Shown piece by piece: positions 61,045-61,193 of a DNA stretch of 64,000 nt (position 1 is the stretch's first letter; each line of letters begins with the position of its first letter). The translations under genes were made by a program, and so were the position numbers. Origin of the DNA: Eledone cirrhosa (taxonomy: Eukaryota); contig OZ024765.1 of the NCBI GenBank assembly GCA_964016885.1, forward strand, positions 17,360,001 to 17,424,000, read 5' to 3'. Under the pieces are notes generated by a model. That model searched no databases. It was not told the DNA's origin and was given only the letters and a program-made list of their open reading frames with translations.

Positions 61045-61193
61045 ACGATATTAAACAAATGGAAACTATATTTATAAAACCATATTTATTTCGTTATATA
61101 TATTTCAGGGATATCATATTAAAAATATGGTATGCCTTCCTCAGACAATATTTACTCGTTGTAACCCAACAATCTTAAATAAAACTTTTGCAT
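61045..61193. mobile_element. Family G element: - arm with complete hammerhead (61087-61150) joined to a + arm that is tail only
   Basis: rc ttgt-CTGAGGA-AGG..CCT-GAA-ATATATAT-A-ACGAAATA; 61149-61193 is the rc of 45932-45976. Confidence 0.8.

Follow-up and report, generated by a model that had tools for sequence, protein, structure and literature searches.

At positions 61044-61191 of the analysed 64-kb stretch of DNA (the window), an insert of family G was found that consists of two arms in head-to-head, 5'-to-5' orientation, with both 3' ends facing (TA)n (Table 1). The arms were compared with a full tandem unit of 3,715 bp (L061:5516-9230), which was traced from long copies elsewhere in the genome. 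The strand with the hammerhead core was defined as sense strand. As described in the first-pass annotation, the minus arm starts at the internal end point (E1); it shows 2 differences in 105 nt to the unit and its final 2 nt (TA) are common to the target repeat. The plus arm had been described as only the last ~45 nt of the tail, and this could be confirmed. It is identical to the unit, with 0 differences in 51 nt if a 6-nt TA-like continuation is included: past the tail end (E2), 6 further element nt match the TA repeat (61192-61197). The continuation was read from the tandem unit, where the sequence following E2 is visible. Between the two arms 43 nt of the unit (3629-3671) are missing. Apart from the 2-nt overlap at the junction no common sequence of the arms was detected, in agreement with the annotation; the longest common string, on either strand, comprises 7 nt of A/T.

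The minus arm had also been said to contain the whole hammerhead ribozyme. Core, stem II, the palindromic (self-complementary) stem III and the 3' strand of stem I are present, but the ribozyme is incomplete. The 5' strand of stem I is cut to 4 nt, and the stem I duplex reaches -1.5 kcal/mol compared to -7.1 in the copy at 46160-46245. The motif was assigned by hand; an Rfam search with gathering and E-value thresholds found no hammerhead. Both flanks of the insert are pure TA and a target duplication is unreadable at this site. The insert is one member of a common class.

Table 1 Features of the insert and of its sister copies in the window
Feature	Position	Strand	Description and basis
E1 arm	61044..61148	-	unit 3524-3628, 3' end = internal end (E1); BLAST against unit L061:5516-9230
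Tail (E2) arm	61147..61191	+	unit 3672-3716, 3' end = tail end (E2); BLAST against unit
Inversion junction	61147..61148		2-nt overlap common to both arms; no TA run
Hammerhead core (CUGAGGA, stem II, GAAA), minimal type I	61103..61144	-	motif scan, duplex energies
Left (TA)n target flank	61025..61045		sequence
Right (TA)n target flank, common to adjacent family H insertion	61192..61208		sequence
Sister copy, overlapping type	45932..46278		BLAST to unit
Older diverged family G relative, head-to-head arms	34239..34823		77-79% identity to unit
Family H copy, long tail arm and 15-nt E1 stub overlapping tail arm	27681..27805		sequence comparison
Adjacent family H insertion, tail arm and E1 arm, overlapping type	61209..61413		sequence comparison

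Among the sister copies in the window, 45932..46278 combines a tail arm (unit 3549-3715, minus, to 46100) with an E1 arm (unit 3450-3628, plus). On the 5' side, its E1 arm exceeds the tail arm by about 100 nt, hence this is not a fold-back copy. The insert at 27681-27805 had been regarded as a near-mirror case in family G. This assignment was not upheld, since it matches the family at 61209-61413 (family H) and its stub agrees with the own long arm at 13/15 positions. Because of this overlap the copy is uninformative on the mechanism. The other family H copy lies only 17 nt from the insert. Further hammerhead-core motifs were observed in the window at 33054-33211, 32140-32264, 55936-56038 and 45041-45087, three of them as inverted pairs. 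They probably represent other Penelope-like families with the same arm layout.

The parent element

The unit comprises a frame with reverse transcriptase (RT) and C-terminal GIY-YIG endonuclease, a long 3' region, a hammerhead near 3528-3577, E1 at 3628 and E2 at 3715, and the tail from E1 to E2 has 87 nt. In tandem copies the sequence past E2 continues into the next ORF; both E1 and E2 would be internal to a read-through RNA. The longest open frames measure 679-680 aa (L162, L067). In L162:5243-7279 (679 aa) a YRDD-type RT core and a C-terminal IY-YVG-R-H endonuclease were read by eye, and a Pfam search of the ORF gave no significant match. The ORF has 403 homologues; the best named one is an unannotated protein of Argonauta hians with 40% identity, which makes an octopod host probable.

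Several motifs of the Hydra clade of Penelope-like elements (PLEs), in which CxxC and CxH surround E and N (PMC8557442), were identified: KSDKTNN (DKT), CNCRDRSKC (CxCX5C linker), CDLCAEE (CxxC) and CRH (CxH). The RWK motif appears as IRWRAF, with R for K. As in the Hydra clade, no CCHH motif was found in the ORF, a hammerhead is present and the insertions are flanked by (TA)n. In contrast, the unit of 3.7 kb (3,715 bp) exceeds the length of the clade, which is described as 'generally <3 kb', a tendency and not a rule (PMC8557442). Furthermore, the features of EN+ PLEs are seen, namely a single ORF with RT and GIY-YIG-type endonuclease, tandem/pLTR copies, a tail and an inverted 5'-truncated copy. 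By its motifs the element is classified as a young Hydra-type EN+ PLE. The hammerhead of the pLTR is a predicted ribozyme of the minimal type I below the Rfam thresholds, with stems I-II and a stem III whose octamer is self-complementary. Family H is a second Hydra-like element, with an ORF in L217 and endonuclease motifs in L218.

For both arms, a strong accumulation of 5' ends is seen at unit 3435-3465 (equivalent to window 46101-46115), and in 17 pairs both arms begin there jointly (Fisher p=6e-9). This region is probably the transcription start, and thus the RNA 5' end, in the pLTR. A comparable pile-up of arm 5' ends was observed for family H. Arm starts at the ribozyme cut were considered as well; just 4/144 starts lie at unit 3569-3582, which is no clear excess, and the arms of 61044-61191 do not begin in this region. 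L124 (G000:C2:45809954-45817954) carries three tandem mini-units of 456 bp, composed of the pLTR and the first 245 nt past the tail, a possible short non-autonomous form.

Pairing, overlap and target duplication of the arms

Insertions were sampled by their tail end with an exact 23-nt pattern (533 matches); the first 100 listed, covering all of C1 and part of C2, were examined. After 10 tandem-internal ends had been dropped and one E2/E2 insertion had been counted once, 89 insertions remained, 74 of which (83%) carry an inverted partner arm. Seventy partners end at or <=25 nt from E1 and two are E1 arms interrupted by a later insertion. The remaining two comprise one eroded to 3525 and one ending at E2 (E2/E2). 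Thus, 72 E1 partners stand against 1 E2 partner. Among the 15/89 insertions lacking a BLAST partner, L169 has an E1 stub of 4 nt and L119 a masked flank; others are copies disrupted by later insertions or joins with other families. From the E1 side 2,552 matches were obtained. Here 45 places were examined and 4 internal ones dropped, which left 41 true E1 ends: 36 with a tail arm (one partner having a divergent tail), none with a second E1 arm and 5 without partner. Four of these insertions are also part of the tail-end sample. Both samplings agree in a strict pairing of E1 with E2, and for about 110 sister inserts examined in this genome the same two fixed ends are nearly always paired. Tail ends of subfamily B (2,517) are about 5 times commoner than those of subfamily A (533). 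Pattern searches took the place of a DNA search with 68 nt spanning E1, which had given no matches. The start of an arm is taken as its BLAST end point and is accurate to a few bases; start values including 3188 are shifted where subfamilies and reference differ by indels.

Inverted arms ending at E2 are rare and were seen in L079 and L163, both attached to tandem full-length units; L163 was dropped from the count as tandem-internal end. In L158 (G000:C2:228159408-228167408) the tail arm is of family G (unit 3058-3715) and on its upstream side runs on into a different Hydra-like family. The upstream part contains the sense pLTR and the first ~128 codons of that other family, whose inverted arm closes the insert. 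L158 is likely a template switch between the RNAs of two families. Family G arms joined head-to-head to an arm of another TA-flanked family or to a divergent tail were observed in L193:1250-1520, L164:300-1520 and L248; these are either two-RNA events, nesting or deletions.

For the 72 E1/E2 pairs, picked by the tail end alone, non-overlapping and overlapping copies were counted as suggested by the first-pass annotation. In 11 pairs the arms do not overlap, in 8 they overlap by <40 nt and in 53 by more than about 40 nt. Exact abutment at E1 was found in L087, L092 and L093, and in L103/L065 a 77-nt tail arm is joined to a non-overlapping E1 arm of 3,053 nt. The E1 arm starts >20 nt further 5' than the tail arm in 40/72 pairs, within 20 nt in 21/72 and further 3' in 11/72 (40 vs 11, sign test p=6e-5). 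Fold-back lets a strand copy only the sequence already present in it, which would confine the E1 arm to the extent of the tail arm; fold-back cannot yield the 40 pairs in which the E1 arm reaches further 5'. Hence, the claim that one arm is not a self-copy of the other is supported by 11/72 non-overlapping pairs and by 40/72 E1 arms beyond the tail arm. Non-overlapping pairs also occur in subfamily B (4/30 loci), in the E1-side sample (L239, L265, L266) and in family H (L092, L139, L151). Nine more full-length matches to the shape of 61044-61191, with different junctions, were obtained with a query biased towards this shape (L002-L010).

Target duplications were examined with a test that required a matching non-TA marker on both outer flanks and was compared with shuffles. 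It replaced a first, looser test (11 observed vs 4.3 by chance). A duplication of 13-16 nt, including a few bases common to element and target, encloses both arms in 9/67 insertions, compared to a shuffle mean of 0.16 and a maximum of 3 in 3000. Only 14 insertions are informative, 9 with and 5 without a matching duplication. In a second set the duplication was detected in 3/28 others (shuffle mean 0.04), one of the three being weak. The shared interruptions of the flanks indicate one staggered cut around both arms. None of the informative flanks belongs to the 11 strictly non-overlapping pairs; the nearest cases bearing a duplication are L134 and L154, with arms overlapping by 15 and 23 nt. 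A TA remnant at the junction, named in the annotation as evidence for two adjacent insertions, could not be found: a TA run >=10 nt occurs in 0/72 inversion junctions.

The variants of paired arms were compared as well. In 50 pairs overlapping by >=60 nt, the arms differ by about 1.0-1.7%, compared to 3.1% between insertions. Paired arms agree at 301/316 diagnostic sites, with 168 expected; the sites are linked and not independent tests, and for two pairs the outer tandem copy was used. At least one diagnostic mismatch was detected in 13/46 pairs, mostly poly-T indels. Among non- or near-overlapping pairs all 19 A-type tails have an A-type E1 arm and all 12 B-type tails a B-type arm, despite the about fivefold excess of B ends. 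Tail arms stop preferentially near E1, with 16 stops in 4,002 nt at risk vs 13 in 7,849 flanking nt. This excess of about 2.4 times (p=0.014) refers to an interval chosen after seeing the data. Compared with E1 arms of equal length the stall amounts to 16 vs 7 (Fisher p=0.067). The stops look as if the tail arm meets a second engaged primer; RNA structure could also be the cause of this modest stall.

Mode of insertion and alternative explanations

Read from genomic products alone, such inserts were most probably made by two target-primed events. The best reading is a coordinated twin priming at two fixed RNA sites, and 61044-61191 is likely one truncated insertion of the Hydra-type PLE made in this way. 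Two independent priming events, analogous to L1 twin priming, had been proposed in the annotation. The two separate events are supported by the non-overlapping (11/72) and asymmetric (40/72) pairs, by the duplications (9/67 vs 0.16) and by 0/72 TA runs. Their independence is not supported: the strict E1/E2 pairing (72 vs 1 and 36 vs 0) and the same subfamily variants in both arms point to one coordinated complex. The L1 analogy applies to the geometry. In detail it fails, as the start sites are fixed, inverted products prevail and the arms overlap in most pairs.

The element enzyme would cut both strands of the TA repeat about 13-16 bases apart, resulting in two 3' overhangs. One overhang may prime at E2, where 6 nt of the RNA are TA-like and would assist; the second may start at E1 with 2 nt. 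Both cDNAs would be truncated and their ends joined by microhomology, short overlap or templated inserts, followed by filling in. At 61044-61191 the tail cDNA would have halted after 45 nt, short of E1, which leaves non-overlapping arms. A tail cDNA running past E1 would give overlapping arms, the familiar inverted repeat with one-sided tail. For arms to overlap, strand displacement would be required, or else a tandem transcript of which both pLTR copies serve as template; overlaps of more than about 40 nt in 53/72 pairs are not predicted by a plain L1-type twin priming on one RNA. Tandem re-copied inserts of 10-16 nt occur at the inversion junctions of L139, L095, L147 and L159, and resemble repeated mis-priming during end joining.

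Whether both cDNAs are copied from one molecule was considered separately. The shared variants and the stall at E1 favour one RNA as template, and a single RNA or RNP seems somewhat more probable to us than two RNAs of the same source copy. Against a single RNA speak the overlap of most pairs and the few insertions that join different families or two tail ends. The E2/E2 pairs (L079, L163) and the mixed-family joins (L158, L193, L164) indicate that two RNAs can sometimes contribute. The shared arm variants could also derive from conversion between the arms or from one active source at a time. In a variant of the best explanation, still with two target-primed events, dual priming takes place on two RNAs of the same source copy in one complex. 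One RNA would always be read from E1 and the other from E2, and the palindromic stem III of the hammerhead could, e.g., pair to keep them together. This variant would give overlapping arms without strand displacement, the rare mixed-family joins fit, the stem III octamer is self-complementary and hammerheads of PLEs are described as dimer-forming in PMC6765202. Two equivalent RNAs, however, should often yield E1/E1 and E2/E2 pairs, which were seen in 0/36 and 1/73 cases. The excess of tail-arm stops at E1 fits one molecule better, as do the arms of L138, which end at the same base (3535/3536) away from the 5' pile-up. We regard this variant as rather unlikely.

Long palindromes are prone to deletion. 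This counts for another course of events, in which fold-back (self-priming) makes a symmetric palindrome and later central deletions leave uneven or non-overlapping arms. Variants common to both arms are expected for it, too, and the 21/72 near-symmetric pairs fit; 6 of them lie away from the pile-up at 3435-3465, several at small palindromes. Self-priming is also the reading proposed for inverted PLE junctions in PMC3846280. Nevertheless, fold-back with deletion appears improbable for this family. It predicts older uneven copies, but these are no older, with 0.84% private mutations in 19 non- or near-overlapping vs 0.82% in 20 symmetric pairs (remaining values 0.95% and 0.56%). Deletion should trim either arm equally, whereas the E1 arm is the longer one in 40 vs 11 pairs, and where both arms start at 3435-3465 (17 pairs), the E1 arm begins further 5' in 14. 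In L103, L117 and L266 about 3 kb would have to be removed exactly up to the tail. Furthermore, a second strand halting exactly at E1 beside a target duplication is left unexplained.

Two unrelated insertions side by side in the TA repeat, or nested ones, with loss of the intervening DNA are very improbable. The local TA repeats are insertion hot spots, as shown by the family H copy 17 nt away, nested insertions do occur (L121, L145, L137) and the target duplication is unreadable at 61044-61191 itself. Separate insertions are at odds with 0/72 junctions with a TA run, with the strict E1/E2 pairing and head-to-head orientation, with the subfamily agreement (19/19 and 12/12) and with a single duplication that encloses both arms in 12 insertions. 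Least probable of all is an assembly artefact at the palindromic, TA-rich site. No read or contig from 4 public runs spans the junction of 61044-61191 together with its flanks, and at L087 none from 4 runs connects the element to unique flanking DNA. But inserts of this class with other junctions are present on many contigs, in subfamilies A, B and C and in family H, and contigs of the public runs, possibly from the same sample, show other such joints.

Comparison with known systems

Insertions of PLEs with inverted 5'-truncated copy and one-sided tail are known (PMC8557442, PMC3846280). The insertions described here resemble them in head-to-head arms, a tail at one end, partial tandems, target duplication around the whole unit and microsatellite targeting, and differ in the tail of 87 nt compared to 30-40. 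The cause of the inverted repeats and the one-sided tail is called undefined in PMC8557442, where endonuclease resolution is suggested for the tail. Non-overlapping arms, counts of E1/E2 pairing and arm asymmetry are absent from the consulted passages of these two accounts. For the Anolis PLE PAc (Poseidon), nicking and extension of both strands were shown in vitro, and RT starts at two internal positions that delimit the tail; no difference in start site was seen between the strands, and no homology at the priming site is reported (PMC11167929). PAc and our element are comparable in these two RT start sites, in the nicking and extension of both strands and in the AT-rich targets. The start sites of PAc are located in the ORF, those found here just upstream of it. 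A dimer was predicted for the PAc protein. As the PAc start sites show no strand difference, that work alone does not predict the strict E1/E2 pairing. The terms 'inversion' and 'twin priming', or a model for inverted copies, do not occur in its text.

L1 twin priming is defined, and 'dual priming' postulated, in PMC2837659. In both systems a nick in the second strand primes a second cDNA and inverted fragments lie in one target duplication. Internal deletion and junction microhomology, reported for L1, correspond to the 43-nt gap and the 2-nt overlap at 61044-61191; non-overlap with deletion as in L1 is seen there and in 11/72 pairs, but most pairs overlap. L1 primes first on the poly(A) tail and then at an internal annealing site that varies. 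Here, in contrast, no poly(A) is present and the second site is fixed, being E1 in 70/74 partners. Moreover, inversion is a side product in L1 (PMC2837659) and occurs in 74/89 (83%) of the insertions sampled here. Hence, the element behaves in the manner of twin priming, yet its reaction differs from that of L1. For Penelope elements, a twin-priming model was not found in the open literature; it may be in print in subscription reviews of 2005/2006. The arm layout is already known; what seems to be new is the evidence that the two target ends are primed in a coordinated way at two fixed sites.

The chances seem even to us that twin priming is the normal, built-in insertion mode of endonuclease-bearing PLEs. 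A protein dimer would then hold one pLTR RNA with one active site per fixed start point, and would copy from both DNA ends after a staggered cut of 13-16 nt. Inverted repeat and one-sided tail would be direct products, and a conventional second-strand priming at the RNA 5' end would be unnecessary. If this is true, the telomerase-related PLEs are, to our knowledge, the first case with twin priming as rule and not as accident, and many short TA-flanked hairpins of this genome would be explained as truncated products. Hundreds of young natural insertion products are available in the family, and the geometry of most of them speaks against self-priming. It ties the in vitro result of 2024, two start sites with both strands extended, to a genomic pattern and possibly answers the long-open question how PLEs insert.

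Two further repeats were observed in the window. Positions 1-8000 show an extreme G/T strand skew (GC skew 0.8-0.96) and presumably contain a long simple or satellite repeat. A dispersed SINE-like repeat is located at 60760-60895, at 46405-46495 and in at least 10 other places; its copies are 91-95% identical and presumably resemble octopus SINEs.
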